Assembly (NCBI RefSeq): GCF_018143015.1
Contig: NC_054742.1
Location: 73,513,736 to 73,577,735, forward strand
Origin: Lytechinus variegatus
Taxonomy: Eukaryota
Direction of reading: 5' to 3'
DNA length: 64,000 bases
The notes under the pieces are model-generated. The model was given only the letters and a program-made list of their open reading frames with translations, searched no databases and was not told the DNA's origin. A program made the translations under genes and the position numbers. Positions 6,865 through 61,133 of this stretch are shown in pieces. The first letter of the stretch is position 1. Every line of letters begins with the position of its first letter.

Positions 6865-6984
6865 AGTGGTTTCATCATAGTCCTTTGCACTGGGGTTGAC
6901 ACACACCACCATACGGACTTTACCCTCACCGTCAAAGTAGTTCTTAAAGAGATGAGTGAGTTTGGACGTTCTGTAAGGGACCAT
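6865..6984 (-). CDS. KIF23: KIF23 exon (end of motor domain): [40 protein letters not shown]
   Basis: Aligns to human [39 protein letters not shown]. Acceptor cacag, donor gtaagt. Confidence 0.85.
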
Positions 6985-7537: not shown

Positions 7538-7602
7538 CTGAACAATAGTAATTATCATAAAATGGTTTACTGAACTGTTGCTGAAGCAGCCCCAGTAGTA
7601 CA

Positions 7603-8382
7603 CACAATTGCCTTAACCCTATCTAGGCCGGGTATTTTGGGAGTTCATATGGCGGGGGGGGGGGCCTCCCAGGCCCCCCCCTAAGATCTCGGCCGTCGAG
7701 CGTGCGATCGCGCCGAAAATTGGCACGCGGGTTGCCTGGGGCATAATCTACAAGATTGTATAGAAATTTATTTCATGCAAATCACTATTAAGTGATTATG
7801 CTAATTTATGAGTAATTAGTATGCGAAATCATACTTTTTCCTCTAACTCCCTAAATAAAGCTCCAAATGTACTAATTTTTGGTATAGAAACTCTTTGAGG
7901 TGTCCTTAGCAAGTGTACATGAAAAAAATTGTGCTATCAAATCATTTTCTTATATATTATATTGTTTTTTCAATTTCTTATGTATTTCTTTGTTTTTTGG
8001 ACCTTTTGTTTTTCATTGTTTTTTCAATGAAATTTGTTGGGGACTCTTCTGTGATCATAAAAAGCATAAAATTAATACATATAGACTTGCAAAACTAAAA
8101 ATAATCATACATTTATGAATTTTGGTTGGAAACACAATTTGCATTGACTTTGTACACAAAATCACGTTTTTGAGCAATTTTCGGTCTGACATGCACTTAC
8201 ATAATGTTGCGTAATTTCGGAACCACGTACCCGAGTGACGCAAAATTGGTCTCAAAAGTTGCGCAAGACTTGAAAGTAAAAAGTCAGCGAGCGGCGCGGT
8301 CAAAAAATTTCGCACGGCGAAAATATTGCGCGATTCGTTGAGGGGGGGCCTCCGAGGCCCCCCCCGGCCTAGATAGGGTTAA
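7603..8382. mobile_element. Non-autonomous piggyBac-like DNA transposon (about 772 bp) flanked by a TTAA target-site duplication, in a KIF23 intron
   Basis: TTAA at 7603-7606 and at 8379-8382. Terminal inverted repeats CCCTATCTAGGCCGG.. and ..CCGGCCTAGATAGGG, each with a subterminal G-rich run and GGCCTCC(C/G)AGGCCCCCCC. There is no long ORF inside. Confidence 0.65.
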
Positions 8383-8569
8383 GCATGTTTAGCACGGCCT
8401 TTGATTCAGCAATCAAACTTCCCTGATTTCAGCCATTTCTATCCAATTTCCCGAATTTTTTCTGAGTGGAAAAAGAAAAAAGATTGCCCCTGATGGGCTG
8501 GGAACCCTGTCAATCATTTGATGAATTTTCATGATATCTTAAAAAACATTAAAACTTACTCAGGAACAT

Positions 8570-8712
8570 TTCCATTCACATCAAATGCCAAACTGGGGCC
8601 CGTACCACAAAGCTTAGCAATCATCGTAGTACATTCTCCTATGGTTGATTGCATTGTCTACAATGTACAATTACTCATGAAAGTTAAGCATACGATTACT
8701 GGCTGGCTAACT
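8570..8712. mobile_element. MITE family 3 (GGGCCCGTACCACAAAGCTTAGCAATCATCGTAG ... CATACGATTACTGGCTGGCTAACTTTGTG)
   Basis: TIR-bounded. A second copy at 37005..37137 shares about 80 percent identity. Confidence 0.55.
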
Positions 8713-8754
8713 TTGTGTTTATAATAAAGGACCCCACTCTGTTGACTGTCTTAC

Positions 8755-8876
8755 CTGTATGACCTCCTGGCCCAGTGAGTCTAGGGGTGCCTGGACCAGT
8801 CTGATATTGAAGACACTGTGGCTACGACTTGACTCTGTGTTCAGCTGGGTGTGAGCCACCTTACGCCTGGCCTGAC
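8755..8876 (-). CDS. KIF23: KIF23 exon (switch I): [41 protein letters not shown]
   Basis: Contains the NxxSSRSH motif. Aligns to human [39 protein letters not shown]. Acceptor acaacag, donor gtaaga. Confidence 0.85.
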
Positions 8877-9203
8877 CTGTTGTGTTAACAGTCAAAGTCA
8901 AAGGTCATTTATTTTGGATGGCTTTCAGAATACTTATTTTGCTCCTCCTTATCTTCTCAGCTGTGAATATGCTATTGATTCACTTGATTAATAATTGGCA
9001 GAATGTCATTAAGTGAGAGCCAAAAACATGACACCAAGCAACTTTCCACATTCAGCTGGCATTGTCCCTTGACTTGCCCGAGAAGCAAAACTCTATCATC
9101 CTTCTATAAATAGTTTGATTCATTGACATGTAGGTAACCTGCATGAGAAGACCTTCCCTTAGTCAAATATTTGCCAGAGTCAGATAAATTCTGTAGACCA
9201 TAG

Positions 9204-9408
9204 GGCTGTTTCACAAAGATTTAAGTATGACTGAATTGTATTTAAATGCCACTCGGTACATGACGTGCAACACGCAATCATTGCGCAATACTGCGCGTCC
9301 TCTAGGCATGATCTGACCAATGCGGTCATGCCTTTTTATATCGCAGGCAACTAGGCATTTAAGTGCGACTCTAAGTTATACTTAAATCATGGTGAAACAC
9401 CCCCTCCC
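9204..9408. mobile_element. MITE family 2 (TIR GTTTCACAAAGATTTAAGTATGAC ... TTAAATCATGGTGAAAC)
   Basis: Imperfect TIRs. A second copy sits at 2682..2838 (TTTCACGGAGTGTTAAGTATGACTTTTAG ... AATCTTTGTGAAAC). Confidence 0.55.
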
Positions 9409-9645
9409 CCCTCTCCTAGGTAAAATTTCTCCTCTAAGTGGAACAGATTCCTGTGGAGTCCCAAAATATTTGACTTATGCAGAGTTTCCCTTTACTTCTA
9501 CATGTATCATCCAACATATTCCTTGCCATTTTTTTTAACTTGCTAAGCTGATGATGCCAAATGAAGTAAAATCCAATATTGCATCACAAGATACCAAATT
9601 GAACGATTTTATTAAAATAGAAGGGAGTTTTATTTGGATTGTTAC

Positions 9646-9758
9646 CTTTGAGGAAGACCTTATACGCATCATCTGTTGACTTGACCTCTACCTCAGTACA
9701 CATCGCAACATACATGTTATGATTGCAATCTTCTCTCAGATTTCTTGGCGTCAAACCC
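9646..9758 (-). CDS. KIF23: KIF23 exon: [37 protein letters not shown]
   Basis: Aligns to human [33 protein letters not shown]. Acceptor ttttcag, donor gtaaca. Confidence 0.85.
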
Positions 9759-12437
9759 CTGAAAATGAATGAAATAGGAAAAAAAATATATGGTTTAAGA
9801 TTTTTTATTTTCAGAGGGGACATCACAATGCAAATGGGCATGAGAACAATGAAAGAGAAAGTAGACATTCATGTACAATTGAAAGGTACATAGAGTATGG
9901 CATTCATCTTCTCTAAATTTATGACAGATTTTAACACACACAAATAAAGCATAATTCTGAATTGTTTTTGTCTTCAGGTAGCATCCACAACTAGCCTTAT
10001 TTAACCAATTCTGATTCTTATCATTGACTTACAAATTGACCAAATTTACAAGACCTTTTCTTGTATTAAAAATTGAATACCGGTACTGCATGCTAAGCAA
10101 CATACTATTCAATACACGTTTAACGGTACTGAATTACTTTTAGTCAAACTTGAATTGCATATATAGTATGTAGATGTGCCCAACTTTACCCGAACTAATA
10201 CTGACTACTGAAGTTCTATTACTATCAATTTTTACCAACAAGAGATATGTAATATATTGCAAAGAGACAATAAATTGGATAATTTGTGTACAAGGTATGC
10301 TTTGCTTAGCTGTATTAAAAAAAAATGTTTTCAATATCATTTCCTCAAAGTTATTTGAAAGGCTATCAGACATGAACTAAAATCTTCATAATCTAAAGCC
10401 CCCCATCACACGTATTCCAAATCAAGCAGAATTGGCTGGAATGAAAGGACTATTGTTTGACCACCAGTTGGTCATTTAAATCTACTTCGAACACCGTTCG
10501 AAAATACCCCTTCGAATGTTTTGAACATGACCAAAACCCTCGGGATGGCTAAAAAGAAATGACAAAAATATTTTGAATGCACTCGAAATGCAGTCAGAAT
10601 ATTTAGAATGCGCCTAGAATGTCCAAGAGTGTAGCACAAATTATCAATCTGACTCCATTGCGGTTCATTTTGACTAGTGTATGATGATTCACCTGGTCAA
10701 TTTACTGAATTTCAACTCCAGTTTGGTGAATTCAGAAGTTTAGAAATTTCTAGATTTTTAAATATTTTTTTCGTTCCAGCTGATTAGAAATGTGTGATAG
10801 GAGCTTAAGGTAAATAAAAGCTGAAAAAAGCAATATCACCTAAACACAATTATGAACAAGCCTTGAAATTCCTTAAAACAAAGAGCATGTTTTGGGGTTT
10901 TTTTTCATGTAGCTTTCTACATGTACATTCATACCAAAATAAGTGCAAAACTGCATTTACATGCAAAATGACTTATGCCTCAGATGATCTTTGTAGGTTT
11001 GCATGGTGGAGTTTATCATGTGGAGAAGGTTTACGGTTCACCATGTGTAATATAAAGAAGGGAAGGAAATACAGGCAGAAAAATTGATATGGAAAGACGA
11101 GAAAGGATGAAAAGGGGAAATTAGAAGTATTCTCTTTCGACAAATGCCTCTTTGTTAATATGGATATAAAATTTAACAGTGAATAAGCTTTGAAATATAA
11201 ACAAAAAGTAACTGTATGCACTTCAGTCACAGGGAAAATAAGAGGACAGCCTCAAGTGGAAGGGAAAATAAATTAATATAATAATTAATCATATTTTCAA
11301 TAAAATAGTGTGTAGGCTTCTACTAACCCTGAATGAATTTTTTTTGACAGGCTTGAGAAAGTCCACGTGGGTGGATGAGAGCTTGTCAAAAATATTATCA
11401 AGGTTGGTAGAAACTTACATTTTTTGCTATGCTACAGAACTCTAATACGTCGGAACGAAATCTCTAAAGCGATTTACAGATAAATCAAACAGTGAGTAAA
11501 ATTTGTTCATGCAAATTTGTTTAAAGCATTAACATGAATGAAAGAAGAGTGATACTGAAACCATTTTAATAACACCGTTTTCAATCAATGCAGTTAGTTG
11601 TGAAGTGGCCCTAATTAAAAGAACTAAACAGAAAAGCAAAGCAGGTTACATAAAACCAGCTATAAAATAAACATGAAATAAAGAAACCAAACAGAAAACT
11701 CAATGACATACATTTCATCTCTGTTCCAACGATTCCTGGTGTAAGCAACAAGGAATTGAAGAAAAAAAAAGAGAATATAAAATCATAAAGTAAATACACA
11801 TAATGAATGAGCATGAGGGATGTGTAACTTCATAGTTTTTATTTCATAGGGTTAACTGTATGGTAAAGTGATGTGAACTTTAAAGCTGGGTTAACATGAA
11901 ATGAGTAACAAAATGATTAATGGTGGAATCTGACTTTTATACAATGATTGTGACATGTATGTCAACACACAGTTATGACGATGTCATATGATCACAATGT
12001 CATTTGAACCCCATGATTTAATGGTGAATAAATCTATTTTTGTTAATATTCCAAAACTGTTATGCATTGAAATGACCACCAAATGTGCCGAAAAATGAGT
12101 GTATGAGATTCAACAGTGTCCCAATAATACCTGCCAGAATTTAGAGATGGACAGCCAAGCCCAAAGGTCGGGGTTCAGAGGGCCGACTGAGTCTCCGAGA
12201 AGGTTCAGGGGCAGAGCCCCAGGCAGGGATCAAGAAGGAAGTTCCTGCTGAATATCTTGTATTTTAGCAACTTGGCCTCTAAAAAGGACTGGGCTATTAA
12301 TTTTTTTGCCATTTTGAAAGAAAATCAGGTCAGTTGGCAGGTCTGGGGTATTCATCGATCTAATTACTGAACTTGAGATCAGAGTTTAAACCAAACCCAA
12401 GATTAGAATACCGGCATTTATGTTTTAAGATACTCAC

Positions 12438-12602
12438 TTTGAATGGAGTGAGTAGGGAACCTCTTCTAGGAGGTCAAAGATCTGATTGTTGTAGATCTCA
12501 ACGTAGGAAACATAGATGGCATAGTTGTTATCCTCGTCCACGGTGCTGAGGCAAGTAGGGTCCGGTACCCGTACAAAGTTGTCCAAGTCCGGAAAAGCTT
12601 TC
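12438..12602 (-). CDS. KIF23: KIF23 exon: KAFPDLDNFVRVPDPTCLSTVDEDNNYAIYVSYVEIYNNQIFDLLEEVPYSLHS
   Basis: Aligns to human [28 protein letters not shown]. Acceptor tcaccag, donor gtgagta. Confidence 0.85.
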
Positions 12603-13150
12603 CTGGTGATAAAAAAAAAAGGTTCACAACTGATAAAGACCTGCAAACATCAAATATCCTTCTAGTGGAGCGTTGTGGCCCAGTTTCTTGGACATTAAAA
12701 TTGTGCAAACTGGTATCTTGAGAGAAAATTCAGCCTCAAGAATAACTCTACTTGGGTGTGTTATGATTTGCTCAACCAGAATACAAAAATGGATCATTGG
12801 GTACATTAATAAAAAACAATATTTATAATTGACACACTAAAATATGCATCCAAATCCATACTCACAAAATCCCAAAATCTGAATATTCAATATTTAGGGA
12901 AATTAAAATTTCAAAAACTGGACGGTTCAGTTAAAAACTGAATGGTTGGCAACACTGCTTGGGATTCACAAAGCTCTACCATCTCCTCCTCGTTCACTGA
13001 GCATGATATCTAGAAAAAATACACTTTCCAAAATATATAACTACCAATCAATATGAAACCTCAAAAACCCAATTCAAGTTTCATTGAATGTGGATCATTA
13101 TTATTCAAATGTAACTGGCTTGAAGCCATGCAACATTGCCTCTAGCATAT

Positions 13151-13372
13151 GGGGGCATTGTGATCTAGTGGTTACGACTTGCATTTCAATCAGAGGGACG
13201 TGGATTCAAATCCCAGCCAGGGTGTGTTTTCCTTCAGCAAGAACTTTACCCACTGAAAGGCAGCTCGAGCTAAAGCTGGAGTAAAAATAATAGTGCTCCT
13301 CAGAATAAATAATAATAAAAATAGATTTCTAGAAAGATGGCGCTATATAAATGCCTATGATAATTTTCATCA
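13151..13372 (+). mobile_element. tRNA-derived SINE, full-length copy (family A)
   Basis: tRNA-like head GTGATCTAGTGGTTA..GGATTCAAATCCCAGCC. Body with GGCAGCTCGAGCTAAAGC. Tail GATGGCGCTATATAAATGCCTAT. The same unit recurs at 58332, 50085, 49205 (-), 60962 (-), 43805 and 54620 (-). Confidence 0.75.
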
Positions 13373-13454
13373 TTATATTAAATGCATTTCATAAGTGAAA
13401 TTACGTCTCAGATAAGGGGCACACTTTGTCATTAAAGATTGCCTCCTTGTAAAC

Positions 13455-13612
13455 CTTAACACAGGGGTGTGAGCAAGAACAAATTAAAATAGCTGAAATT
13501 ACAAAAGCTCCTATACTTTTGTACAGACAAAAAACAAAGAATGCTGAAATAAGCTGACAATTAAGAACAAATATAGCTGAAATCAGCTAAAAAGCTGAGC
13601 TCTCACACCCCT
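13455..13612. mobile_element. MITE family 1 (TIR CAGGGGTGTGAG ... CTCACACCCCTG, internal AGCTGAAA repeats)
   Basis: Perfect 12-bp TIRs. Other copies at 5692..5806 and a partial copy at 340..460. Confidence 0.65.
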
Positions 13613-13733
13613 GACTTTGTGAAACTCCAAACCGGTCAACTAATATTCAATTCAAAAGTGCGTCATAATGGATATTTTCATAATGTAGTCTAAAAAAAAG
13701 TGATTTGACTTAGGAGTACTTCACAGTACTAAC

Positions 13734-13903
13734 TTTGGTTTTCTGCTAGGTGTGCTGGGCGCACGAGCGCTTTGTGGTGTCCTGGGAGTGCGTGGGGTAC
13801 GTGGTGCTACCGGCGGAGGCATCAACTCCTTCTTCTGTCTCTCCAACATAGCATCGGCCTCCGTCTGTACATCCATGCCATTCACCCTGTCCGGCTTGAA
13901 AAC
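13734..13903 (-). CDS. KIF23: KIF23 exon: VFKPDRVNGMDVQTEADAMLERQKKELMPPPVAPRTP..SRKPK (kinesin-6 loop insertion)
   Basis: Aligns to human [39 protein letters not shown]. Acceptor tgtag. Donor gttagt, phase 2, chosen so that the next exon is in frame. Confidence 0.7.
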
Positions 13904-14461
13904 CTACACAAGATGAACAATGGTTTTGAGTCAAGATTACCAAAATGGTCAATGAAGAAATTGACATTTTCAAGTTTGTTTACCGCATTTACTGTTGTAA
14001 TATTAATTTTGAATAAGGGATATCCTAGTCTTACTTCTGACAAGTTAATTTTCTGTAAACACTTATCCAATTGCAATTTACTATTTCACCAGATATGTTC
14101 ATGTATGAATTTGTGACTACACCAAAAATGTCAATTTTCTTCAGTTGTGCAAGGGTTTGTAGAAGAGTGGAACTTGCTTATAAGTCGAATCTCTTGGGAC
14201 TGGAGTAGGGATAGTAATTTTCTGCAATATCAAAACAGAAAATCTGGTTTGATTATCTACTTTTCATGTGAAAAATTCATTAAAGTTACCTTACCTTTGC
14301 AAAACATTCATACTTTCATGCCAAAATGGAATTTCCATTTTAGATCAAGTTTGATAGGAATTACAGCTTTTCAGATATAGAAAATTCACTGTCCTTACTG
14401 GAGGATTGATAAACTCTAAAAATCTGTTTGATGGTGGTTGGTGTCAACGATGATAACTTAC

Positions 14462-14597
14462 ATATTTCCTGGCCTGTAGGTCACCGAGGCTGTTGAAAAG
14501 GACATCAAGACACCTCGGCAGGACTCCTCCATCTGTGGGTGTCCCCTGCATGGTGTACGTCTTACCCGATCCCGTCACTCCATACATGAACAGCAAA
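14462..14597 (-). CDS. KIF23: KIF23 exon with the kinesin P-loop: [46 protein letters not shown]
   Basis: The GxxGSGKT(Y/H)TM kinesin N1 motif. Aligns to human [45 protein letters not shown]. Acceptor ttttcag, donor gtaagtt. Confidence 0.85.
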
Positions 14598-15584
14598 GCT
14601 GAAAATGAAATCAGGATGAAAATGGATAAATACTGATAACACCAAGTTACATTGAGAATGTATTCATCCTCATATAAAAAAAAATAGTAATTGCAGGCCA
14701 CCTTGGATGAATGATTCCCCCCACTATACTTTCTAAAACCTGGTAAAGTTGTTTATTAAATTTACGTTATCTGGTAACAGCCAATAATCTGGTATGATAT
14801 TGTCAAGAAATCAAAGTAATGATATTCATCTAAGAGCGTTGAACAAAGAGATAAAATCACTATATTTGTACATGATATTCCACATATATAAAAATAAAAT
14901 TAATTCTACTGTCCATTGTTTCTATTAGTTTGAGAGCGAAGGGCCCTGTAAAATATTATATATTTGTAAAGGTTAGATGGTTCAAAACAAATCTGTAAAT
15001 GAATCTTCAAAACATAAGAAAATTATGAATATCAGAATGTGAATGCTATATGTGAATCATACTACATATAAATGATCAATTTTAACAAGTTTAACATTCA
15101 CAAAAGCAATAATATCCAATAAAGATTCCAATTTATCAAACATTTTTTACAACTAAAATATCACTTTATTGTTTTGTAATGGGTTTTAAGCAGAAAGTAA
15201 TTCCACATTTTAGTCTGTTCTTGTTAGTTGGTAATCTAAGAAGATAACTTACAATTTTGCCATGGAGAGGTCTTAATAATATTATCTGTAAAGCTTTGTG
15301 CGATATTTTAACACTAATAACATATTGGTAATATTTGTCTAAAAAACAAATATTACCAATATATGCTGTCTACATGCTTCTGCAGTATTTCTAAAAAAAA
15401 TTGAAGATTTAAATAAGATTAGACCAAGAATTCTATCACTTTGCTTCAAGATTTTAAAAACATGATTTTAACAGTACACAAAATTACATATGGATATAAT
15501 AAAAGATCACTCATGGTAAGAAATGTCATATAAATTGATGAATAAAGTATGGTCAAAAAGGAAAACGTGGAATTACAAATAGGT

Positions 15585-17160: not shown

Positions 17161-18699
17161 CTGAAAAATAATATGAAATGATACAAGAAATGATATTACA
17201 TATTTGTCCATGGTTTAGTGCATATGCACCTAAAGGGCAAAGATCAGGGGCCCATTTCATAACGAGTTACAAATGAAACGGGCTACCAATGGGAAGGTTA
17301 GGGGAAAAATGTTACTTTTTATTTTATTGAAGTCTCTTTCATATACAATAAATGTTCTATAATAGCAGCAACAACACACTAAGAAAATTTCATATATTGA
17401 TGCATTGGAAGATGTGTAAATATATGTCAACCCTCAGATGCAAAAGGTTACAAACTACAATTTTACATCCTTGTTTGATCAAAAGAAAGAAAGGAAGACA
17501 AGGAAGGAAGGAAAGAAAGAAAGAAAGAAAGAAAGAAGGAAAATACAAAGTAAAAAGGGAAGCAATAAAAAGGAATGAAAAAAGAAAGGAAAGAGAGAAA
17601 AAAAAAAAAGAATGAATTACACCTTTAGTAGTCCTACTTGTATATAGATATTATAGTATTACCAAGCCATTAGTAAAGTTTGGTGGCCCGAAAAATATAA
17701 AGAAAAAACATTAATTAAAAATGAATAAAACAAACTGAAATATTCTGTAGTCACTACCACGTACATGTACCACTATTCTTTGTACATCTTGTATGTAAAT
17801 CGTGCTTGCTGTTATTTTACTTTGCTTATTTCGTGGTAATATATAAATTGTTCTATCATTGTAAATATGAAATGATTGAAAGAGAATAAAAGAATTGTAT
17901 TGTTCCCAGTTTGTGTGGACTTTTAATCTCCATATAGACACACACTCATAATGGTAAAGTAAATAAATAGTTCATATAGCAAACTCAGATTTACAAAACA
18001 ATGATTTTTCCTGTCTTCCCTTTTGATCGTAAAACCTAGATTATGCAGACCCCAAATCCAGTTTATTTTCTCTTTTCCAGCATATTATAGCAGGAGAAAA
18101 TCACAGAAAAATATGCTGCAGATTTAGAACAATGTGTAAAAGGGGGAAATAAACAAAAATAATTTTTAGAATATTATATTGAAAAAAAGAAAACAAAAAT
18201 TGTAAAAATGAAAATAAAACAAAAGAAAAAATGATGAAAGAAAAAACAAAGAACAGGAAAAAAAACAAAAGAAAATGTAAGAAAAATGAATAAGACAAAA
18301 TTATAAAAAATGGGGAAAATTATTATTATTCAGTAGAAACATGTTCTTTAATCAGGCATATTCAATGGGAAGGGGTATAATTGGTTTCATCACTGTAAAA
18401 AAAAATGAAAGAAAAAAATAAGAAAACAGCAAAAGTTATCTGGAAAAAACAGTGAGAAAATTCCTTCCTTATATTTGACAAAATGATGGAAAAGAAATCA
18501 CATTTCATATCAATGAAATGCCTTTCCCAGGGCTCCACACTAACCCATTTTTTCTACTGGTCCAACCTATTCATGTCGGACCAGTAGATACCCAGTGTTT
18601 CAAATTTTTACTGGTCCGAACCTAAAATCTACTGGTCCCAAAAAATAAAGAAAACATTAAAAAAAGGCGCAAGTTTATTTTTGTAGCCTTTCGTTACCC

Positions 18700-19800
18700 C
18701 CCCCCCCCCTGAAATACGGGACAAAAAGAAAGCAAGACAGAAACAAAGAAGGAAAGAAGAAAGAAAGAACGAAAGAAAGAAGGACGGAAAAGAAAGAAAG
18801 AATAAGAGAAAGGAAGGAAGCAAGGAAGGAAAGGGAGGAAAAGAGAATAAAAAAGGAAGGAAGTAAGTAAAAAAGAAAAGGTAAAGAAAGGATAGATGTG
18901 AAGGAAGGAAAAAAGAAAGAACTAAGGAAGGAAAGAAAGGAATAAAGAAGGAACAAAAATAAGAAAGAAAAAAAAAAAGAAAGAAAGAAAGAAAGAAAAG
19001 AAAAGAAAAAGGAAATGAAGGAAAGAAATGAAGCAAGCAATACAGAAAGAACAAATCCAGAAAGTAGTGAAGGAAAGAAAGAAGAAGCAATAAAAAAAGA
19101 AAGGGTTAATGGAGAGATGGAAAGAAGGACAAAAGAAAGAAAGAGAGGAAGGATTGAAAGAAGGAAGAAAGGAAAGGTAAAATTATAAATAGAAGGAAAG
19201 AAATAAATGAAGGAAGGGAAGGAAAGACGCAAGCAATATAAAAAAAAGAAAAAATAAAATAGATGAAAGGAAGAAAAAAAGAAAGACTGAGAGACAAAGA
19301 AAGAAGAAATAAAAAAGATAAATAAATGAAGGAAAGAAAAGGGTAAAAGGAAGGAAAGGAAGAAGAGATGAATATAGGATGGATGGACTCAAGAATTAAA
19401 GAAAGAAAAACATCAAAAAGAAAGAAAGGAAGGAAGAAAGTAACGAAGAATGAAGGAAAGAAAAGGGTAAAAGGAAGAAAAGGAGAAGTGATGAATATAG
19501 GATGGATGGACTCAAGAATTAAAGAAAGAAAAACATCAAAAAGAAAGAAAGGAAGGAAGGAGGGAAGAAAGGAAGGAAGGAAGGAAAGAAAGAAAGAAAG
19601 AAAGAAAGAAAAAGAGAGAAAAAAAGAAATAGAGAAAAATATTTTTTAAAAGGATAGAAAGAATGAAAGAACGAATTAAAGAAAAAAAGAAAGACATTAA
19701 CCAAAAAAATGAAAGAAGAGAGGGAAGAAACAAAGAAAGATTGAAAAGAAAGAAGGAAAGAAAGATAGGAAGAAAACAGAGGAAGAAAGCTAAAACTATC
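18700..19800. repeat. About 1.1 kb polypurine/polypyrimidine microsatellite (AAGG, GAAA and GGAA units) in the intergenic region, with an internal 75-bp direct duplication (19368..19445 matching 19487..19565)
   Basis: Nearly pure R/Y strand asymmetry over more than 1 kb. The long purine or pyrimidine ORFs the track shows on both strands are artifacts. Smaller related tracts sit at 17460..17625 and 18100..18300. Confidence 0.9.
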
Positions 19801-22599
19801 ATAAATAATTTATCAATTTCTTTTTTGGCTCAATTAAAATACTAGTACCTACGAAAGAAAGTCAGAAACCAAGTGTATCAACACACACATAAATGCATGT
19901 GGTGCTAATATGTATTCAGACGATATCACCCGAAACCCGATCTGTTTGAACCAAATAGAAGTGAAAATTTATCCTTTTACTACTTACAAATGACAGATTT
20001 ACTCCAATTTTTAGGAAATATGGACATTATAAGAGCCTTTCATGAGTATGAACTGTGAATTTTGACAGTTCTGTGAGAGATTTCTGCCAGAGTTTAGCCA
20101 AGCTTCGTTCGCGCTGCCAGTAAATAATTTACCGCGTGAGTTGTGTGGCTGGCTACATGTACACTGTATCTGCTCTAGTAGCAATTATGTGCAATTCATT
20201 CTGTGTGTATTCTGTGTGTGAATGACAGAATTTATCGGGGGAAAATGGTTTGCAGTGAATTTGACCATTTCTGGAAAAGTTATTTGCCCAACAATGGTTT
20301 TTATTACTGGTCATGTCGGACCCTTAACATCTTGCTATTTTTGGAAAAATTACTGGCCCGACAATGATATTTTTTACTGGTCATGTCGGACCAGTAAATC
20401 TTCCCATTTCTGAAAATCTACCGGCCCGACAGCGATTTTTACCAGTCTGGGACCGTCAGACCACCGCTAGTGTCGAGCCCTGCCTTTCCGAAGTATTTAC
20501 TTCCTTAAGAGTGGTTTAAGAAGTCATGTATAAACAAGAAAGAAAGAAGCTGTCTATTTATTTTTGGCTAGAAGAGACAGCTTCGAAATAAACCAAATAT
20601 CAACATACATACAAATGCACATGTGGGACTGTGATGTACTCACCTATGTGTTTTATGTGTATTAATGCATTTGGAAATCGGTCTTTTTGAGTCAAAAAAG
20701 AGGTCATAATTCCTCCTTTGAATGCTTGCAAATAATCAGGTTTCAGTAATATGGACTATAGAAGGGCATTTCATTGGTGTAAAATGTGACTTTGACGTAG
20801 ATTTTCAAAGTTCTGGGGAAGATTTCTTAGCAGTAACATTTCGTATCGCAGCTCCCTGAGTCTGAATATTCTGCTAACGCACAGCTAGCTGCAGTGGTTT
20901 CATGCAAGCAAAGTTCAGCCAGACAGCTGGCACGGCCGGCTGAATAATAGTTACTGTATGCTAGCAGTAGGCCTACATACTGTCATGACTATGCAATCTT
21001 TGTGTGTGTATATTTGTTTGTAGATTAACAAAAAAGGCGCATGACGAATTTGATTGCAATTTGAACTGTAGAAAGTTGATAAATCATAAATGGATGCAGA
21101 ATCGGGAGAAAAATTGCGCTACTTTGAAAATTATTGGTTGCCCGATTCGGGCCACCAAAACTTAACATTTTTTCAATAATGGTTGCCCAAGATGAATTTT
21201 TGGTGGCCCTGGGCCGCCGCTAATGTCGAGCCTTGGTATTACTGTACTTTTGTACGACAGAGTAAAAATGGGGAGCAAATGCCAATAAAAAGAATCGAAA
21301 AAAAAAAAGACAGAAAGAAAGACGGAAAGAAAGATCGCTTCAGGGAAAAGTATTAAAATAAATAAAAATAAAGAAATGAAAAAGGTAGAAAGATGCTCTA
21401 AAAATAGTTGAATGTTAGTTCAACTTCAAGGAAGAGACAAATAAATGCCAGATTGATAAAATGGGCAAAAAGTAAAAGGAGAGCAAACGAAGGGACGGCG
21501 ATGATTGGACGACACTTCATACATCATGTATGAATGATGTTAACAAAAATTTAAAAATTCACAAAGAACAAAGTCAAACTTATAGCCAAAAATAAAAAAA
21601 CAAACTCAAACCCAAGTCAAATTCCATTTCCAAATTCAACCAAAAAATGGCATTGGCAAGCAACACAAGTCACAAATGATATAGGCCTAGATCGATCTAG
21701 GGCTAGCCTAGCCCTAGGCCCCTATAAAGTCAAAGCCAAACTAAAATGCAAATTACTGACTAAATATTCATTTGCACAATTAAAACAAAAATATACAACT
21801 GCCAACTGCAAGAGCCAAGATCATGAGAATGATGTAGGCCTAGTCGGTATTTTCTAGTCTTGGCATTTTTATTGCACAAAAATGGTTTAAAAATATGGTA
21901 GGATGGGGGGTCGGGTGTCCGGACACTTTAAAATACAATTTTGAAGCCTTCTTTTTTGTCTTTAGATTACACTAAAAATATGAATTCAATAGTTGCAATC
22001 ATCTTCTATTTTGTTCTCTATAATATTTTCTAACATTTTGTACTAAAAATTGATGAAACTTTGCTTGTATTTTTCCAAATGACATTCTCAAATTGATCGT
22101 CCGGACACACAACCTGTCCGGACACACAACAACTGGGTACCGTATATGCTCTCTCTCTCTCTGTTCTCATCCCTCCACTTGGTTCGGAGATCGTCGGGTC
22201 CAACCCGCATGTGACGTATATGTATCTTGACGACTGAATGATAGTGACTCATCATTCTCATCATATGCGTATGCATGTCACCTTGGCCCTGGAGATTTGG
22301 CCCCTGTGCAATGCCAACTAGGGTAACACGGATTCATGATATGTGAATTGGTCATTGTATGCATACGAGTTGCATACGCCAGAAATGAAAATGGTCTAAA
22401 AAGAAAAATATTGCGTGGAAAATGACCGAGGGCTCGGTTCATACTTTTTACTTTAAATTATCCAGACCGCCGTTGTCTTGACCATGTGCTTATTCTTTGA
22501 TAGTTACTTACGTTGGCTTCATGTTGGGATCCCTTCTTTAGTCAGAAATACAGCTAGTTTGGTGATATCTTTGCTCAAATTCAGAAGAAAATCGATCAG

Positions 22600-36039: not shown

Positions 36040-36905
36040 GTGATTGGTACATAACTAATACCCATCATAGAGGGCACTAGTTAGAGTTATATGCACGGGA
36101 TACCTTTGGAACAGTTTTAACATGCGTAAGGCTTAGCCGAGGGCACTAGGACTGTTTTAATGGTTAATTGGTATATAACTAATACCCATCATAGAGGGCA
36201 CTAGTAAGAATTATATGCACATGATACCTTTGGAACAGTTTTAACATGCGTAAGGCTTAGCCGAGGGCACTAGGACTGTTTTAATGGTTAATTGGTATAT
36301 AACTAATACCCATCATAGAGGGCACTAGTAAGAATTATAATCACATGATACCTTTGGAACAGTTTTAACATGCGTAAGGCTTAGCAGAGGGCACTGGGAC
36401 TGTTTTAATGGTTAATTGGTATATAACAATACTAACCATCATAGAGGGCACTAGTAAGAATTATATGCACATGATACCTTTGGAACAGTTTTAACATGCG
36501 TAAGGCTTAGCAGAGGGCACTAGGACTGTTTTAATGGTTAATTGGTATATAACTAATACCCATCATAGAGGGCACTAGTAAGAATTATATGCACATGATA
36601 CCTTTGGAACAGTTTTAACATGCGTAAGGCTTAGCCGAGGGCACTAGGACTGTTTTAATGGTTAATTGGTATATAACTAATACCCATCATAGAGGGCACT
36701 AGTAAGAATTATATGCACGGGATACCTTTGGAATAGTTTTAACATGCGTAAGGCTTAGCCGAGGGCACTAGGACTGTTTTAATGGTTAATTGGTATATAA
36801 CTAATACCCATCATAGAGGGCACTAGTAAGAATTATATGCACAGGATACCTTTGGAACAGTTTTAACATGCGTAAGGCTTAGCCGAGGGCACTAGGACTG
36901 TTTTA
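36040..36905. repeat. Tandem array of about seven 122-bp units, starting exactly at the donor of the TEP1 exon that ends at 36035
   Basis: Unit ..GGTTAATTGGTATATAACTAATACCCATCATAGAGGGCACTAGTAAGAATTATATGCAC..GGAACAGTTTTAACATGCGTAAGGCTTAGCCGAGGGCACTAGGACTGTTTTAAT. Units are about 95 percent identical. The first unit overlaps the real donor context (CAGGTTGGTGATTGGTACATAACTAAT). Confidence 0.85.
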
Positions 36906-37004
36906 ATGTTTAACAAGAGCATCCATCCAGTTTCTTTGGGTATTTTCATTTGTGCCGTAATATAGTGTGTCCTATAGAAAAATTCTTAAAATATTGAAAG
37001 TTAA

Positions 37005-42729: not shown

Positions 42730-44214
42730 GTAATACTTAACCTTTCATTTTTCACACCTCCTGTACTCTATCTTAAGACATTGACACCAAACTCTTCTTT
42801 CGAAACTTTAACCAAACAGTCTGGGCCCCATCTTATAAAGAGTTTTGATTGATCTCACCTATGGAAAGCCATCAGTGTCATATTTCATCTGGGAAATTTG
42901 TTCACTTCCCCTTTGTAAGCAAAGAGGAGCCATAAGTAGACAATAAGGAGACATAACTCATCTTAAGAAAATCAAACACACGCATATAATTGGATGAAAA
43001 TGGAGATGAGTTTTATGGCAAATCCTTTTGCAACAGGCCCCTGTCTTACAAGTAGTTGTGATTGTTCTCAACTATGGAAATCCATCAATGTCATATTTTT
43101 TCATCTAGGTAATCTGCACAGTGTCCTTTTGTAAAGGAAGAGGAGCTCATCGGATTGTCAAGACCGTGATGCACACATGAATATAGATTTTTTTTAGAAT
43201 GTTTTTAACAGACATATATGCATTTTTGATGTTGGGGTTGCTGGCTTTCTGCACTGTTGTGGTTAATTTGATCAAAAGCTGTTATCTGTAAAGGCTACCA
43301 AACACCTTACGACCTGACTGGTCTGCGACTGTGTGAGGGGAGATGAATCACGAGGTAGTCATAAGCCTTGACACCTTGCGATCTGACTGCCCTGTTGTCT
43401 GCGAATCACGCATACCCTATTTGCTTTTTGTCAGAGCAATAGAAAATGATGCGTATGCGCGTTGCGTATAATGTACGCATCGCAACTCTGCTGTCTGATT
43501 GGCTGGATGTTGGACTGAGCTTGCCATCCAGTTGTAATGATTCGACATGTCAAATCTTTACGATTTTTCCTTGCGATTCATCTCTGACTGGTCTGCAACT
43601 CTGAAGCTGACAAGAACTGTGACGTCACATTTCCCTTCACTCAGTCGCAAGCCAGTCATAGACCAGTTGGGTTGTAAGGTGTGCGGTGGCCTTGAGACGG
43701 GGCCCAGGAATACCATATTTACATGGTATATCTGCATACCTCTTTACCTAATTTTAGAAGCTTAGAAGAAACAGTAGGAAAACTTATATGTAATGATAAA
43801 CTTATCTACTAATCATTGAACATTCACCCACATTGTTCTAAACTCAACCCTGGTGAGGTGAATGGGTACCTGGCAGAATTAATTCCTTTGGCTAATACAT
43901 GTGTTTCTTAAAGAGATGTTTTTAACACATATTTGAATCTGTTGAAATCTGTTATTGATCTTATATTACGAGGCACATTGTTCCACAATTTTGGTGCCAT
44001 TTTCCCAAAAGCTCTATCACCAGAAGTCTTGGACTTTACTAGTTTTTCAGAGAGAAGATCCTTTGATTGTGAACGAACATTTTGACTGGGTTGATATTTC
44101 TGAATTAAAATGGTGCTATATAAATGCCTGTGAATTGTTAACATTCCAAAATGCATATGCATTGCCCTTATTTCTGTTTATCATTTTTTTTATCTTTCGT
44201 AAAATCATTTCCAG

Positions 44215-44391
44215 GCACCATACTTTACGTGTCTTCATCTCCTCCACGTTCCGCGACATGCACGGCGAGCGCGACCTCCTGACCCGGTTCGTCTTCCCGG
44301 AATTGCGGGCCAAGGCGCGCACCCGCTTTGTCAACCTGTACGAGGTAGATCTGAGGTGGGGAGTCAGTGAGGAACAGACAAGACACAGCAG
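44215..44391 (+). CDS. TEP1: TEP1 DUF4062 exon: [59 protein letters not shown]
   Basis: Aligns to human [55 protein letters not shown]. Acceptor ttccag, donor gtatca. Confidence 0.95.
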
Positions 44392-44797
44392 GTATCATTA
44401 TCATTTTTTTTTTCAGTCATGATAATAGAAAAGATGTAATCGATTGTATGTGATATCTGTTAGTATAAGTGTGTGGGGGCAGTTGCAAGAAAATATTTGC
44501 GATCAAATTTTAGATGCAATTTCAACTCAATCAAACCAAATTATACTTGTTGATGCGAAAAACTGACTGTCAATCAGTTGGAAATTTGCAATGAAATGCA
44601 TGACTTTCAATTAATTTTGGGACATGAAATTTGACTTGCGATTAATCGCAAGTTTCTTGAAATACCCCATATGGTAGACAATTATAAGGAGATAAATAAA
44701 ATCAATTGTAATTATGGATTGTATCTCTTTGTGTATCTATAATTCAAAGTCGAATTCAATTTAATTTTACATCGTATGTTTGCTCCTATCCTATCAG

Positions 44798-45040
44798 CTC
44801 TGTAGAGATCTGCTTACGGGAAGCCAATCGGTGTGATCTCTTCATCGGCATCCTGGGAGATCGCTATGGTTACGTCCCAAACGACTACCCCGATATGAGC
44901 GACATTGAAGACTTCGACTGGCTGTCGGCTCATCCCAAATCGCGTTCAATCACCGAGTTGGAGATGTATCACAAGGCTCTCAGAAACTGGGGGACAAGCA
45001 ACAATGCTTTCTTCTTCATCAGAAACTCAGAATTCATCAA
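44798..45040 (+). CDS. TEP1: TEP1 DUF4062 exon: SSVEICLREANRCDLFIGILGDRYGYVPNDYPDMSDIEDFDWLSAHPKSRSITELEMYHKALRNWGTSNNAFFFIRNSEFI
   Basis: Aligns to human [73 protein letters not shown]. Acceptor ctatcag, donor AA|GTATGT. Confidence 0.9.
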
Positions 45041-45867
45041 GTATGTTTTTGAAAAGAAGTTATTTATTTCTCATAGAGATAGGATATTTGGTAAAAAGAC
45101 TCCTACAGGAACAACTAGGGATTATTTTTCATCCAATACTCCATCAAGTATGTTTCGACAAGAACCTGTTGATTTTCTCCTAGAATTTGTTTATCTACTA
45201 AGTCTCTTTTATTATCAGGGTGACAATTTGAAAAACACAGGATTTCAGTTCTGAATTTTATTTTTGGAAATCAATTCTTTCATACAATAATTTCTTTTAT
45301 TCCAATATGTGTAGATGAGAAAGATTTTCCTTGCAACAATTGTCTGACCAGTAATATTTTACCTGTAACTTACTTTAAAAGTCTTATCAGCTCTGTAGAG
45401 AGTGAGCAGCGCGATCAAAAAACTTTGCGAAATGGCGTAGTGATGAAATTTGTCGAGGGGGGGTCAAATTTACCCCCCCCCCCAGTTTAATAAGGGTTAA
45501 AGTTAACTTGTATCCAATACAAAAAATGCATGTTAAGTCTGTCACTGGACTTTCTTTGACCTAAGAGTATTTCATTAAAAGTAGAAAGTTTTTTTTTTAA
45601 GTACCAGCAGCTATGACTTTAGTATTGAATTGTATACTGCCCCAGACCTTTCTGCGTAATCTGCAACAGATATTTCTGATTATTTGTAAGATAAATACTT
45701 AACGAGTCCTTAATTAGAAAAATGTGCAATAAAGGGCACCATATCTGATCAAGAGAACATTTTGAATTATCATAAAGAATCTTTCATAAAGAATTGGTCA
45801 GTGAACATTGATATAATGGTCAGGACATTTTTGCAAGATGCAAATTTTGGAATGATAATTCAATGTC

Positions 45868-46085
45868 CAGTGTGTTGGCTCAGTTGGTAGAGTTTCTGTC
45901 TCACAACCAGGAGGTCGGGAGTTCAACCCCCATCCGCGTTAGACCAAAAGATGTTAAAAGATGGGAGTTGTTGCTACCCTGTTTGGCGTTCAACGATTAA
46001 AGGGATAGAGCCTCGTCGATCTGGCGCTGCACAGTGGCTGCTGGGCCCATGATCAATTGGGCAAAGTAAATTTTCAGAGTACTTT
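45868..46085 (+). mobile_element. tRNA-derived SINE of a second family (family B)
   Basis: Head GGCTCAGTTGGTAGAG..GGTCGGGAGTTCAACCCCC, followed by a unique body. It lies in a TEP1 intron. It is not a functional tRNA, because no anticodon arm can be formed. Confidence 0.5.
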
Positions 46086-46241
46086 ATTTCATGTCTATTT
46101 TGAAAAATAAAATATGGATTTCCATTTCATTCATATTACTGAACCCTTACTAATATTTAGACAGGTATTAATATTATCTCACTCAGGTCATTATACTGTT
46201 GCAAGATGTGACATCGATAAGTTGTGATCTTTGATTTTCAG

Positions 46242-46355
46242 GAATGTCCCAAACAAGTTGAGAAGTCAGTTTGTTGATGAGAATACCCAGAGGAAGGAGA
46301 GACTCGCCAGCTTGAAGGATACCATCCGTACCAGTGGCTGTGAGGTCTTTGACGG
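46242..46355 (+). CDS. TEP1: TEP1 exon: KNVPNKLRSQFVDENTQRKERLASLKDTIRTSGCEVFD
   Basis: Aligns to human [38 protein letters not shown]. Acceptor ttttcag, donor gtaaga. Confidence 0.8.
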
Positions 46356-46439
46356 GTAAGAACACTTCTTTAAGCACTTGTAGGAATTGATTTGATGGAC
46401 AGGAGTGTTCCAAACAATTTGAGAAGTCAGTTTGTTTTC

Positions 46440-47071
46440 TGTTAATGTATTCATGGTTTCTTTCTCTTTTCTGTACTGTAACACTTGCCATAATGGTTTG
46501 TATCTCTCTAATTTTAGTCTTGTTATCGATACTATAATGGTGTTTATTTTTTAACTCTTTTCTGTCCAAATTAACCCATGCCATAAAGGTTTTGATATCT
46601 TACTATTTTCTTTCCATTTACCCTTGCTATAATTTTGTTATTTGTCACCATTTTCTGTCCACTGACCCTTGCCATAATAGTTTTGATTTCTTTTCTGTCC
46701 ACTTACCCTTACTATAATGGTTTTGATTACTTCTATTTTCTCTCCAGTTACCTATGATAGAAAGTCATCCAGGTTTTAAATCCTGTTTAGTCCCCGACTA
46801 TGGGGGTGGCTGGATTCACTTCACACTCACATAGATCACCTTAACCCCATCCCTCCACTTTACTCTATTCGATGCATCCCCCTCCCTCAACCCAACCCTC
46901 CTACTCTCCTCCACCACTTGCCCCCTCCATGTCTTCTTCACTTGTCCCCTTCCCCTCTGACCTGCCACCTCAAACTCACAAGCATCCTTCATATTGGGAT
47001 TTTTTAAAATAATTTTCTGTCTAGTTGCCTATGCCATAATGATTTATTCTTTCCTTCTATTTTCTGCCCAG
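46440..47071. repeat. Degenerate tandem array (unit about 38-40 bp, TTTTCTGTCCACTTACCCTTGCCATAATGGTTTTGAT) copying the polypyrimidine/acceptor region of the TEP1 exon at 47072
   Basis: At least eight units. The last unit (TTTTCTGCCCAG|TTACCCATGCCATTTTGG) is the real acceptor plus exon start. A C-rich segment interrupts the array at 46800..46990. Confidence 0.75.
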
Positions 47072-47192
47072 TTACCCATGCCATTTTGGTGGGGTAGTAG
47101 GCGGTAAGCCAGTTGTCGTGAACCTGGAGGAGTTTGGCCGCCGTGTCATCAACAATATCTGGAACTACATCAAGCATGCATATCCAGAAGAT
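47072..47192 (+). CDS. TEP1: TEP1 exon: GYPCHFGGVVGGKPVVVNLEEFGRRVINNIWNYIKHAYPED
   Basis: Aligns to human [37 protein letters not shown]. Acceptor ctgcccag, the last unit of a tandem array of acceptor-like copies. Donor gtaagc. Confidence 0.85.
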
Positions 47193-48053
47193 GTAAGCTT
47201 ATTTTTTGCATATTTCTGAGCTTCAATATTTGCATTATATGTAGATATTGCCATATGCATATGCATGAATAATGACTGTAAATTTGGATTCACATTTATA
47301 TGGTCCATTTCAATATCAAAATGCACAATTGATTATTTTTATGCAATGTTAAACATGATCATAGTTTTTGTTTGAATTTAAATGGTGTATGCCTGAATTT
47401 TTTAGCTGAGTAAGATGTAAGCATATTGATATTTGTGACAGTGATGTAGATTGTTACCACAGAGAGATCTTTACCTGAAAGGAGATCAATCCTTGCATTC
47501 ACTGAAAAAGTACTTGGCAAATGAAAAAAAAAGTGAATAACATTCCGAACTTATTAAAATCTGAATTTAGTAAACATGTATTTCAGTTGCTTGATTCTTG
47601 AACTCAGACAAAATTCTAATCGCTGGTAGTTTCGTTCTTATTTTTCCATGTCAATTGTAGTATTGGTTAGACGTTCTTGTTCCAGGGCGTTGGTTTGAAA
47701 GTAGAAACAATTACCATTTCAAGAAATGATAATTTATACAAGTTTAATGTTTTGTGAGAATTGAAGGTTTGCATGGTGGTAAGACCGAATAGAGAGTTTT
47801 GCGGTTACACCATGTAGGTTAGTCCTGAATAGGACTGTTTGTTAATCTTTCTGGTTATAGTTCCGAGAAGAACTGTTTTCTCGACGTTTCGAGCAGATAT
47901 GCTTTTCTCTACGTCAGGAGTCCTGAAAAAACAGTTATTCTCAGAACTATAACCAGAAAGATTAACAAACAGTCCTTTTCAGGACTAACCTACATGGTGT
48001 AACCGCAAAACTCTCTATTAAGTTCCATGTTTTGTTTGTATTTTTTTTTCAAG

Positions 48054-48236
48054 GGTGAGATCCTTGATGAAGTAGTTCATGAGAGAGCACAGCATGACAT
48101 GTTCCTCCAGTCACAGCTAGCAACCTTTACCGGTAGAAAGAACCAGGTCAAGCAGTGTTTGGATATCATCAAGAAACCTGAGACAGGGTTGTTGATGGTC
48201 ACAGGAAAGCAGGGGTGCGGCAAGACGGCTTTACTG
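48054..48236 (+). CDS. TEP1: TEP1 NACHT Walker A exon: GEILDEVVHERAQHDMFLQSQLATFTGRKNQVKQCLDIIKKPETGLLMVTGKQGCGKTALL
   Basis: P-loop GKQGCGKT, compare human GQSGQGKTAFLASLV. Acceptor ttttttttcaag, donor CTG|GTAAGA. Confidence 0.9.
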
Positions 48237-49080
48237 GTAAGATATGATAAAGGAGATAATAATAATAGTGTATAATTGTAGAGCGCACACACCGTCAGTA
48301 GACACTCATGGCGCTAGCCGAGCAACAGCTCTCTTTTACAATGGAAAAATTAGATTTTATAGAAATTTATATAAATACTACACAAGAACCATGACTAAGT
48401 ACATAGATGGGAGGGATGATTGAGAGAGCTAGTGGTCTTACCAGTAGGAAGAACCAGGTCAAGCAGTGTTTGGATATCCTCAAGAAACCTGAGACAGGGA
48501 TGCTATTGGTTAAAGGCAAGCAGGGGTGGGGCAAGACGGCTTTACTGGTAAGATATGATAAGAGAGATGGGAGGGGGAGGAGGGGGGGCAGTGAGATAGC
48601 CAGCGACCTTTACCGTAGGTAGAACCCGTTCAAACAGTGCTTAGATGTCATCAAGAAACCTGAGACAAGGATGCTATTGGTTACAGGCAAGCAAGCAGGG
48701 GTGCAGCAAGACATCCTTACTGGTAAGATATGATAAAAAAAGATTGGAGGGTAAGGGGTAGGGGTTGAGATAGCTAGCGACCTTCACTGGTAAGAAGAAT
48801 CAGTTCAAACAGTATTTGAATGCTGTCAAGAAAGCTGAGTCAGGGATACTGATGGTTACTGGCAAGCAGGAGTGTGGCAAGATGGCTTTACTGGTAAAAT
48901 GTGATAAGAGAGATGGGAGGGATGAAGGAGGGAGGGGGCAGTGAGATAGCTAGCGACACTGATGGTTACAGGCAAGCAGGGGTGCGGCAAGACAGCATTA
49001 GTTGTAAGATATGGTGAAAGGGTCAGAGAGATGCTAGCAAAGCGAAGCTTAGATGTAGGAGGGGGGGGGGGCGTTGATAT
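48237..49080. repeat. Four degenerate tandem copies (unit about 185 bp) of the 3' half of the NACHT Walker A exon plus its donor and the first 60 nt of the intron
   Basis: Copies at about 48395, 48590, 48780 and 48940. Each keeps ..KKPETG.LLV.GKQG.GK.A.L then GTAAGATATGATAA. The third and fourth copies keep readable P-loops (ECGKMAL, GCGKTAL) and GTAAG donors. The second is degenerate (QAGVQQD). Confidence 0.85.
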
Positions 49081-49204
49081 ATCTAGCAACATCCATGCGT
49101 CATTCCTCAGAATCGCTTTGGAAAGATAGCTACATCCAACTCCCTTTGGAAATGATAATAAGTCCCCTCACTCAAATCCCAATGGTGATTATTAACTTGA
49201 TATT

Positions 49205-49482
49205 AATAATAATAATAGTATGTCCATTTATATAGCGCAGTTACTATGTGCATATAATAAACTTTTGATTAATAAATTGATATTTGGTATCATACATGTA
49301 TCATTACCCCGGCTGTAGCTGAGTCGCCATATTAATAGGCGCTAAAGCGTTCAAGTAATAAATCCTACCAGTTACCCATTCACCTCACCTGGGTCAAGTG
49401 CAGCACAATGTGGATAAATTTCTTGCCGAAATTACGCCATAGCTAGGATCCGGGGACTAATTCACTGGGCCACAACGCTCCA
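49205..49482 (-). mobile_element. Family-A SINE copy in inverted orientation, about 600 bp upstream of the 50085 copy
   Basis: The reverse complement shows the head GTGGCCCAGTGAATTAG, body CACATTGTGCTGCACTTGACCCAGGTGAGGTGAATGGGTAA and tail GCGCTATATAAATGGA. Confidence 0.7.
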
Positions 49483-50084
49483 TGAGAATTATGTTGATAT
49501 TATGTTTAATGAATAGTCTTTAAAAATATCAAGCAATATAGGGAGAGAAAAAAAATTTGGTTGACATTATTTTAACCCTTGTGAGTTGGATTAAGGTCAT
49601 GGGGCAGAATGTCTGGGTTTTATGACCTTGCCTAAGAGGTTCATTCACTTGTGTTCCCAAGTCAGGCTTATCTTGGGCCATGAAATTATGAGAAGCCAAA
49701 AATGTCACAATCTTCTTCACGTTATGTGTTTCTGAAGTCCACTTTGCTCTTTCATCATGCTCTAATGGCAAAGAAAACTAATTTAGTTGTTATTCCCAGA
49801 CAGTTGTGAATGAAATGAATGACAGATGAGATGATAAATCTAACCTATACTGTTAGAGATTGGTGTGACAGTTGGTTATCCATTGTTAAACCACATCGAG
49901 AGTTTAAAATTAAATCTCATTTCAAAATACTGGCCCTTTTTATTTTTTAAAAAATTTAAAACCTCAATTTCTTACATTATCTTGTGAGGTGATATTATGT
50001 ATTGTGGAACCAAATATGATACAATATAACAAATGTTACATTTACATAGCGCATTACATTTACATTTTTGTCCAAATAGTATTA

Positions 50085-60819: not shown

Positions 60820-61133
60820 GTAAGTACACATTGACATTGGATTGTAGTAATTCTGATAACAATGCAACTTGTTGCACCAACGAATCCACACTGCAGAGTG
60901 CTCAAGTTCCCAACTGTAGCCAGCTATCTTCTTGGTGCACAGGTGTTTCACTTTAAGCATATTCTGCAATGTACCCCTTTACTACAATCGGGTCGAGTGC
61001 AGCACAATGTGGACAATTTTTTTGCAGAAGAAAATAAAGGTACCCATTTTCTACACCGTTTACCGAAGTCTTCAGGTAGACCACTCACATGGCATTATTT
61101 GAAATAACCAATTTATGTTTGGACACTTTGCAG

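Follow-up and report, generated by a model that had tools for sequence, protein, structure and literature searches.

The window, by which we mean the whole 64,000-nucleotide stretch analysed here, carries on its + strand a gene in which a Pfam search found a NACHT NTPase domain followed by WD40 repeats. The NACHT family PF05729 scored 35.9 bits against a cut-off of 26.7, and AAA_16 scored 43.7 bits against a cut-off of 32.6. The Walker A motif of this gene, GKQGCGKT (48205-48228), fits GxxxxGK[ST], and an exon at about 51330 encodes LIIVIDG, a Walker B segment that fits hhhhD. By domain score, Walker A and Walker B, the host gene is a NACHT/STAND NTPase. Its best homologue, P0003, carries HTH_NWD1, an NWD1-like winged-helix domain, and the best named NWD1-like match, from the bivalve Solemya velum, is 55% identical. 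At the other end of the window, positions 1-15000 of the - strand hold a KIF23/MKLP1-like kinesin gene, with motor-domain exons that include 14447-14752, 12437-12649, 8722-8904, 7349-7612 and 6835-7005.

The Walker A exon of the NACHT-WD40 gene encodes GEILDEVVHERAQHDMFLQSQLATFTGRKNQVKQCLDIIKKPETGLLMVTGKQGCGKTALL; its translation ends in ..KKPETGLLMVTGKQGCGKTALL and is followed by the donor gtaagatatgataa. A tblastn search with the homologues P0003 and P0007 covers this exon, and six homologous proteins compared by tblastn have a single P-loop, with the sequence of the next exon directly after it. A protein search with the two real exons, made to look for same-species proteins with unit-derived peptides, gave only two matches, both genomic contigs from related species. 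In two such contigs, L001 and L002, the Walker A exon has the same boundaries as in the window, and in L001 it is joined to the next exon over a 578-nt intron. The exon of L002 is 93% identical to that of L001, and the intron starts of the two contigs differ. At its acceptor the Walker A exon has the unusual AAG in the window (48051-48053) and in L002 (674-676), and CAG in L001 (133-135).

Two further elements lie upstream of this exon. A near-perfect 232-nt palindrome (47788-48019), with 95-nt arms that are 96% complementary, ends 35 nt before the Walker A exon acceptor; the 281-nt stretch around it (47780-48060) came to -163.6 kcal/mol as RNA (z = -23.6). The palindrome looks like a MITE-type insertion and may interfere with the branch-point region; its Rfam matches were below threshold (mir-1422, 33 bits against 60). 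Farther upstream, in an intron of the same gene, 45869-45939 (+) matched tRNA in Rfam at 33.8 bits against a gathering threshold of 29, and could be either a tRNA gene or the head of a tRNA-derived SINE.

Downstream of the Walker A exon we found four extra copies of a unit of ~175 nt, each made up of the terminal ~120 nt of that exon, its donor and a further ~50 nt of G-rich intron sequence (Table 1). An earlier reading made from the letters of this DNA (hereafter the sequence-only reading) had described four further tandem units beyond the exon, and Tandem Repeats Finder, BLAST and a repeat search all bore this out. Tandem Repeats Finder reported an array at 48444-48957 with a period of 175, 3.0 copies, 77% matches and a score of 554. 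The repeat search placed in-register copies at 48127 (the exon), 48438, 48609, 48784 and 48952 (shortened), with ungapped identities to the exon copy of 62-90%. When unit 2 was compared with the whole window by BLAST, it matched array copies only, with E values from 1e-13 to 1e-47. These results confirmed that the array is real, with a similarity far beyond chance.

The unit starts at 48117, 63 nt inside the exon, leaving the acceptor and the first 63 exon bases (21 codons) uncopied. Successive units start at 48117, 48429, 48600, 48774 and 48950, and the array ends at 49083-49090. The copies that had been called exon-like are thus real but partial, running from about 48117 without an acceptor, and the end of the array falls at about 49090. 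The units are arranged head to tail with a constant spacing of 171-176 nt once a 147-nt insertion and a 66-nt deletion are allowed for; the first interval is 311-312 nt instead of about 175 because the insertion sits in the spacer of unit 1. The 8-mer CTAGCAAC occurs just twice in the 64 kb, counting both strands, and these two occurrences are the two boundaries of the array. The fourth copy of the repeat family (49052-49090) loses its similarity at the second of them. This terminal CTAGCAAC could belong to a truncated sixth unit, rather than being the original intronic microhomology.

Table 1. Coordinates of the array, its units and the neighbouring exons (positions in the window; a slash marks the exon-intron boundary).
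Feature	Position	Strand	Remarks
Exon preceding the Walker A exon	47072-47192		
Genuine Walker A exon of the NWD1-like NACHT-WD40 gene	48054-48236	+	183 nt, phase 0 at both ends
Left unit boundary CTAGCAAC, inside the exon	48117-48124	+	
Genuine donor CTG/gtaagatatgataaaggagat and first intron bases of unit 1	48237-48257	+	Intron start homologous to that of L001
147-nt insertion in the unit 1 spacer, AGAT on both sides	48258-48404	+	Extra block in copy 1 only
Rest of the unit 1 spacer (agatgggagggatgattgagagag)	48405-48428	+	
Unit 2 pseudo-exon	48429-48547	+	90% identical to the exon over 131 nt
Unit 2 donor copy CTG/gtaagatatgataa (identical to the real donor) and G-rich spacer	48548-48599	+	
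Unit 3 pseudo-exon	48600-48722	+	1-nt deletion, 4-nt GCAA duplication, in-frame stops
Unit 4 pseudo-exon	48774-48893	+	120 nt, open frame
Unit 5 truncated pseudo-exon	48950-49003	+	66 nt lost internally, between ACTG repeats
Final spacer; its last 8 nt (49083-49090) are the second exact CTAGCAAC, the right array boundary	49004-49090	+	
Following genuine exon (ASVVDTLQSRSIHPIVHFVGAVPGSS...QEYK), partner of the real donor	50328-50488	+	Covered by tblastn of homologues

The spacers begin with gagagatgggagggatga, nearly the same as the first bases of the L001 intron, and because the L001 intron begins almost alike we take this part of the unit to be original intron. The array is rich in G-runs, with 48.9 GGG per kb against 10.2 in the window, or about five times the density; its sole canonical G-quadruplex motif is at 48569-48588, in the spacer of unit 2. 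The AGAT on either side of the 147-nt insertion is a possible target-site duplication, and only the first ~30 nt of the insertion resemble the start of a SINE-like repeat at about 49208. BLAST found no further copy of the unit or of the insertion elsewhere in the window, which argues against a transposon with a captured exon. No Rfam match within 44000-54000 touched the array, and the remaining intron (49095-50327) contained no more exon relics above background. The same intron holds an inverted pair of SINE-like elements (49347-49430 and 50090-50173; 85% complementary, 659 nt apart), and more SINE-like copies lie at 58392-58608, 43822-43888 and 60971-61037.

The start of the intron is itself similar between species. 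Over its first ~31 nt (gtaagatatgat.aga.agat.ggagggatga), the window units (48237-48268 and the spacers) agree with L001 (319-350) at about 27-28 positions, and unit 2 is like the L001 intron start at 24 of 28. This agreement contrasts with the neighbouring exon, whose synonymous sites have almost reached saturation (pS 0.61), and the matching ~31 nt may represent a conserved splicing element of the intron.

The individual units have decayed to different degrees. The sequence-only reading held that they keep both the Walker A motif and the donor, which is true of part of the array: GxxxxGK[ST] survives in units 2 and 5 only, and an exact donor in units 2 and 3 only. Unit 2 lacks 1 nt close to its 5' end and then has an open frame from SRKNQ.. 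to ..GKQGWGKTALL; it translates as SRKNQVKQCLDILKKPETGMLLVKGKQGWGKTALL, followed by the donor gtaagatatgataag, and its Walker A motif, GKQGWGKT, is formally intact. In unit 3, frameshifts of -1 and +4 lead to ..GKQAGVQQD, the decayed unit that had been noted near 48590, and its donor copy at 48723 is identical to the real donor. Unit 4 translates as LATFTGKKNQFKQYLNAVKKAESGILMVTGKQECGKMALL, followed by gtaaaatgtgataag. Its Walker A motif reads GKQECGKM, with GKT changed to GKM and a G to E, and its donor at 48894 is weakened to gtaaaa by loss of the G at +5. Point changes inside unit 4 have created a new donor-like site, CTG/gtaaga, at 48790 (48787-48795), which is absent from the parent exon sequence (CCGGTAGAAAG). 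Unit 5 encodes only LATLMVTGKQGCGKTALV, followed by gtaagatatgg; it keeps the Walker A motif GKQGCGKT, and with it the perfect GCGKTAL that had been reported near 48940, and its donor at 49004 (GTT/gtaaga) has lost the G at -1. Units 3, 4 and 5 have an in-frame TAG at their start, where the exon has CAG. The earlier statement that every unit encodes KKPETG.LLV does not extend to unit 4, which reads KKAESGILMV, or to unit 5, from which that part is missing; the other translations quoted were correct. As for phase compatibility, units 2 and 4 are open and in phase 0 at the donor, and unit 3 is frameshifted with stops.

We then considered whether the copies look like exons to the splicing machinery. 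Acceptors were assessed by the pyrimidine count at -20 to -4 and by consensus matches, rather than by a trained splice-site model. By this measure the nine real acceptors of the host gene have 59-88% pyrimidines, and no AG within 48243-49003 has at least 60%. For the unit-start AGs, use of which would include a complete unit in phase 0, the value is 12-24%, as a purine- and G-rich spacer precedes each unit. By contrast, donor-like sites are present. The extra donors at 48548, 48723 and 48790 match CAG/GTAAGT at 7 of 9 positions, as many as the real donor, and are no more than 560 nt away from it; no site matching at 7 of 9 occurs in the other 1.5 kb of the intron. Reading through past the real donor runs into a stop 12 codons on (48273-48275), so the exon would run into this stop whenever one of the extra donors served as the alternative 5' site. 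No inverted repeat of at least 20 nt involving the array was found within 47000-51000.

Substitutions in the copies also differ from those in the real exons. Between the window and L001, the real exons have 7/1/19 differences at codon positions 1, 2 and 3, with a dN/dS of 0.09. In the copies the changes are distributed evenly among the three codon positions: compared with the exon, the counts are 9/5/6 for unit 2 (dN/dS 0.29), 12/3/10 for unit 3, 10/6/12 for unit 4 (dN/dS 0.20) and 7/5/9 for unit 5; between units 2 and 4, the two open units, dN/dS is 0.95, all of these figures resting on 35-40 codons. The small codon-position counts agree with the lesions, namely the frameshifts and stops of unit 3, the loss of the threonine in unit 4 and the truncation of unit 5. 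The extra copies thus appear to evolve without coding constraint and look like neutral relics.

The order in which the copies arose can be read from individual shared bases, which we used in place of a neighbour-joining tree of the units (155 columns, weak bootstrap). At 48128, 48131, 48166, 48167, 48168 and 48177, unit 4 has the base of L001 and L002, and the window exon, unit 2 and unit 3 have all changed; at five of these six sites the exon, unit 2 and unit 3 have one derived base in common. At four other positions (48137, 48189, 48200 and 48206), the exon differs from all units and from the outgroups. This pattern indicates that unit 4 split off first and units 2 and 3 later, with the exon changing since; unit 5 was probably also among the first to split off, with unit 4. 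The copies are therefore of different ages, and the array grew stepwise.

A related event is visible in L001: about 95 nt inside the same intron lies a single decayed copy of the exon end and donor (local score 23, reached by none of 2,000 shuffles; z about 8). This relic is followed by a G-rich stretch, its donor is degraded and its bases are mostly of the L001 type, for which reason it may be an independent duplication rather than a sign of common ancestry. Either the exon-intron junction was duplicated independently in both lineages, or the copies were homogenised within each lineage. We also considered whether unit 5 is orthologous to the relic; this was rejected, as the L001 intron compared with unit 5 gave no significant match (z about 1) and the relic has L001-type bases. 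Other long-period arrays lie in the window at 36043-36913 (124 nt x 7, 96% matches), 51714-52198 (160 x 3), 52745-53419 (156 x 4.3) and 19325-19610 (123 x 2), and such minisatellites of 120-175 nt therefore form readily in this genome. The array at 52745-53419 ends about 65 nt short of the acceptor of an exon at 53484. Two further repeats were also seen. A purine-rich (AAAG)n tract of ~1 kb occupies 18632-19775 and is strongly asymmetric between the strands, with a GC skew of 0.38 and an AT skew of 0.52 in 18001-20000. The other, (GATGATAAC)n at 56846-57565, has a higher-order period of 45 nt and lies just past the NACHT-gene exon 56745-56936; it is open for 173-240 codons in at least three frames, on both strands, D/N-rich and, in reverse, H-rich, and may be either coding low-complexity or intronic sequence.

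Taken together, the array is very probably a minisatellite-like tandem duplication straddling the 3' end of the Walker A exon, and its downstream copies decaying intronic relics. A segment of ~175 nt would have been bracketed by two CTAGCAAC copies, one exonic and one intronic. Slippage or unequal exchange between them would have produced the first duplicate, and further unequal exchanges would have brought the array to about five and a half copies. An acceptor and the 5' third of the exon precede the first copy alone, which would thus remain the functional exon, with 48236 joined to 50328; the other copies lie inside the intron and would be removed with it and decay neutrally. We infer this duplication mechanism, and the absence of the copies from mRNA, from how the array is built, the repeat at its boundaries, the neutral substitutions, the lesions, the absence of acceptor-like sequence and the relic in the relative. 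The suggestion that the units are relics of unequal crossing-over thus agrees well with the head-to-tail constant period, the 8-mer at both boundaries, the neutral substitutions and the lesions. The open frames of units 2 and 4 and the identical donors of units 2 and 3 could leave room for occasional cryptic use.

One alternative is that the retained donors act as decoy or alternative 5' splice sites, whether as a side effect or in a regulated way. U1 snRNP bound at 48548, 48723 or 48790 would lead either to a poison extension subject to nonsense-mediated decay (NMD) or to unproductive complexes in the intron, and output of the NTPase would be lowered either way. Regulation through decoy splice sites, or through poison exons that trigger NMD, is known, and in vertebrates a 5' splice site can be used more efficiently when G-runs lie close to it. 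The clustering of the three 7-of-9 sites near the real donor, the fivefold GGG density and the early read-through stop speak for such a role. However, these sites arose as by-products of the duplication; of the four donors that the units carry, two have already degraded, which argues against selective retention, and the single relic in L001 has a degraded donor as well. The real donor is, moreover, the one nearest the acceptor of the 183-nt exon, and exon definition would be expected to favour it. We therefore regard this explanation as unlikely. Were it correct, duplication would here have created a minor instance of splicing regulation; none of our results points that way.

A broader version, that the array is not inert, seems to us improbable. 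The donors at 48548, 48723 and 48790, together with the G-runs, would recruit U1 and G-run-binding proteins and tune the mRNA of the NWD1-like STAND NTPase through a poison extension or intron detention; alternatively, unit 2 would occasionally be spliced in, providing a GWGKT variant of the P-loop. Were this so, the repeated duplication of the junction in two lineages would reflect selection, not a mutational hot spot.

The sequence-only reading had raised the possibility that the units are used as mutually exclusive exons, exchanging the context of the P-loop, or as poison exons; we consider a role as functional coding exons, alternative or mutually exclusive, very improbable. The frames of units 2 and 4 are open and end in phase 0 at the donor like the real exon, GxxxxGKT is intact in units 2 and 5, and an AG at 48772 would give unit 4 as a 120-nt exon in phase 0/0, as would AGs at 48405 or 48423 for unit 2. 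Against this, the units have no acceptor or pyrimidine tract and lack the first 21 exon codons, units 3 to 5 begin with an in-frame TAG, and the substitutions are neutral. Unit 4 has no Walker A threonine, unit 3 is frameshifted and unit 5 is truncated, so that instead of complete exons with an acceptor and a donor each, under purifying selection and with intact frames, there are partial copies with lesions. Neither is there a complementary docking or selector sequence of at least 20 nt in 47000-51000, the homologues have a single P-loop and the array is not conserved in L001. For a poison (NMD) cassette exon, donors are present, an acceptor-like site is absent and L001 offers only one decayed relic.

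Tandem repeats are a known cause of assembly error, and the array had been thought prone to collapse, but a falsely expanded or mis-joined repeat is hardly credible here: artefactual duplicates would be near-identical, whereas these copies are 62-90% identical (differing by 10-38%) with private indels, the longest exact stretch between any two units is 32 nt, and a relic copy occupies the same place in the independent assembly of a related species.

Tandem exon duplication is known to leave copies of exons in neighbouring introns, and commonly so; the locus is an instance of this kind, a partial duplication without an acceptor. Intronic copies of neighbouring exons number 4,027 in human genes, most of them without annotated use and only some expressed (PMC9013439, which also cites the survey that Letunic and colleagues made of animal genes in 2002). 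Like them, the array consists of exon-derived sequence placed in the adjacent intron by local tandem duplication; unlike them, its segment runs from mid-exon into the intron, with a donor and no acceptor, and there are four extra copies of different ages. With mutually exclusive clusters such as Dscam and the SCN alpha exon 5a/5b (PMC1397879 and PMC12772994), the array shares tandem, homologous, phase-compatible coding segments. The exons of those clusters are complete and under purifying selection, with both splice sites and a mechanism of choice, none of which was found in the array. Such clusters are a rare, conserved and functional outcome, and the locus lacks their features wherever these were tested. 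The array resembles minisatellites in its period of about 175 nt, its G-rich part, its lineage-variable copy number, the arrays of similar period nearby and growth by unequal exchange or slippage, but two-thirds of its unit is host coding sequence and its copies are old, diverged and not homogenised. It has strong intronic donor-like sites, use of which would lead to a premature stop, in common with the decoy sites and NMD poison exons of autoregulatory cases (PMC6547761); the known cases are conserved and supported by transcripts, whereas the sites in the array are decaying by-products.

The main value of these results is practical. Four P-loop-like copies with good donors in an intron can mislead gene predictors and homology annotators into calling a duplicated P-loop, choosing a wrong donor or splitting the gene, errors that are averted by knowing that only 48054-48236 joins 50328. 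The locus also illustrates cleanly, and in a form that can be dated, the birth of a minisatellite from microhomology at an exon-intron junction. It shows the raw material from which tandem exon duplication could start, and why partial copies without an acceptor stay non-exonic.
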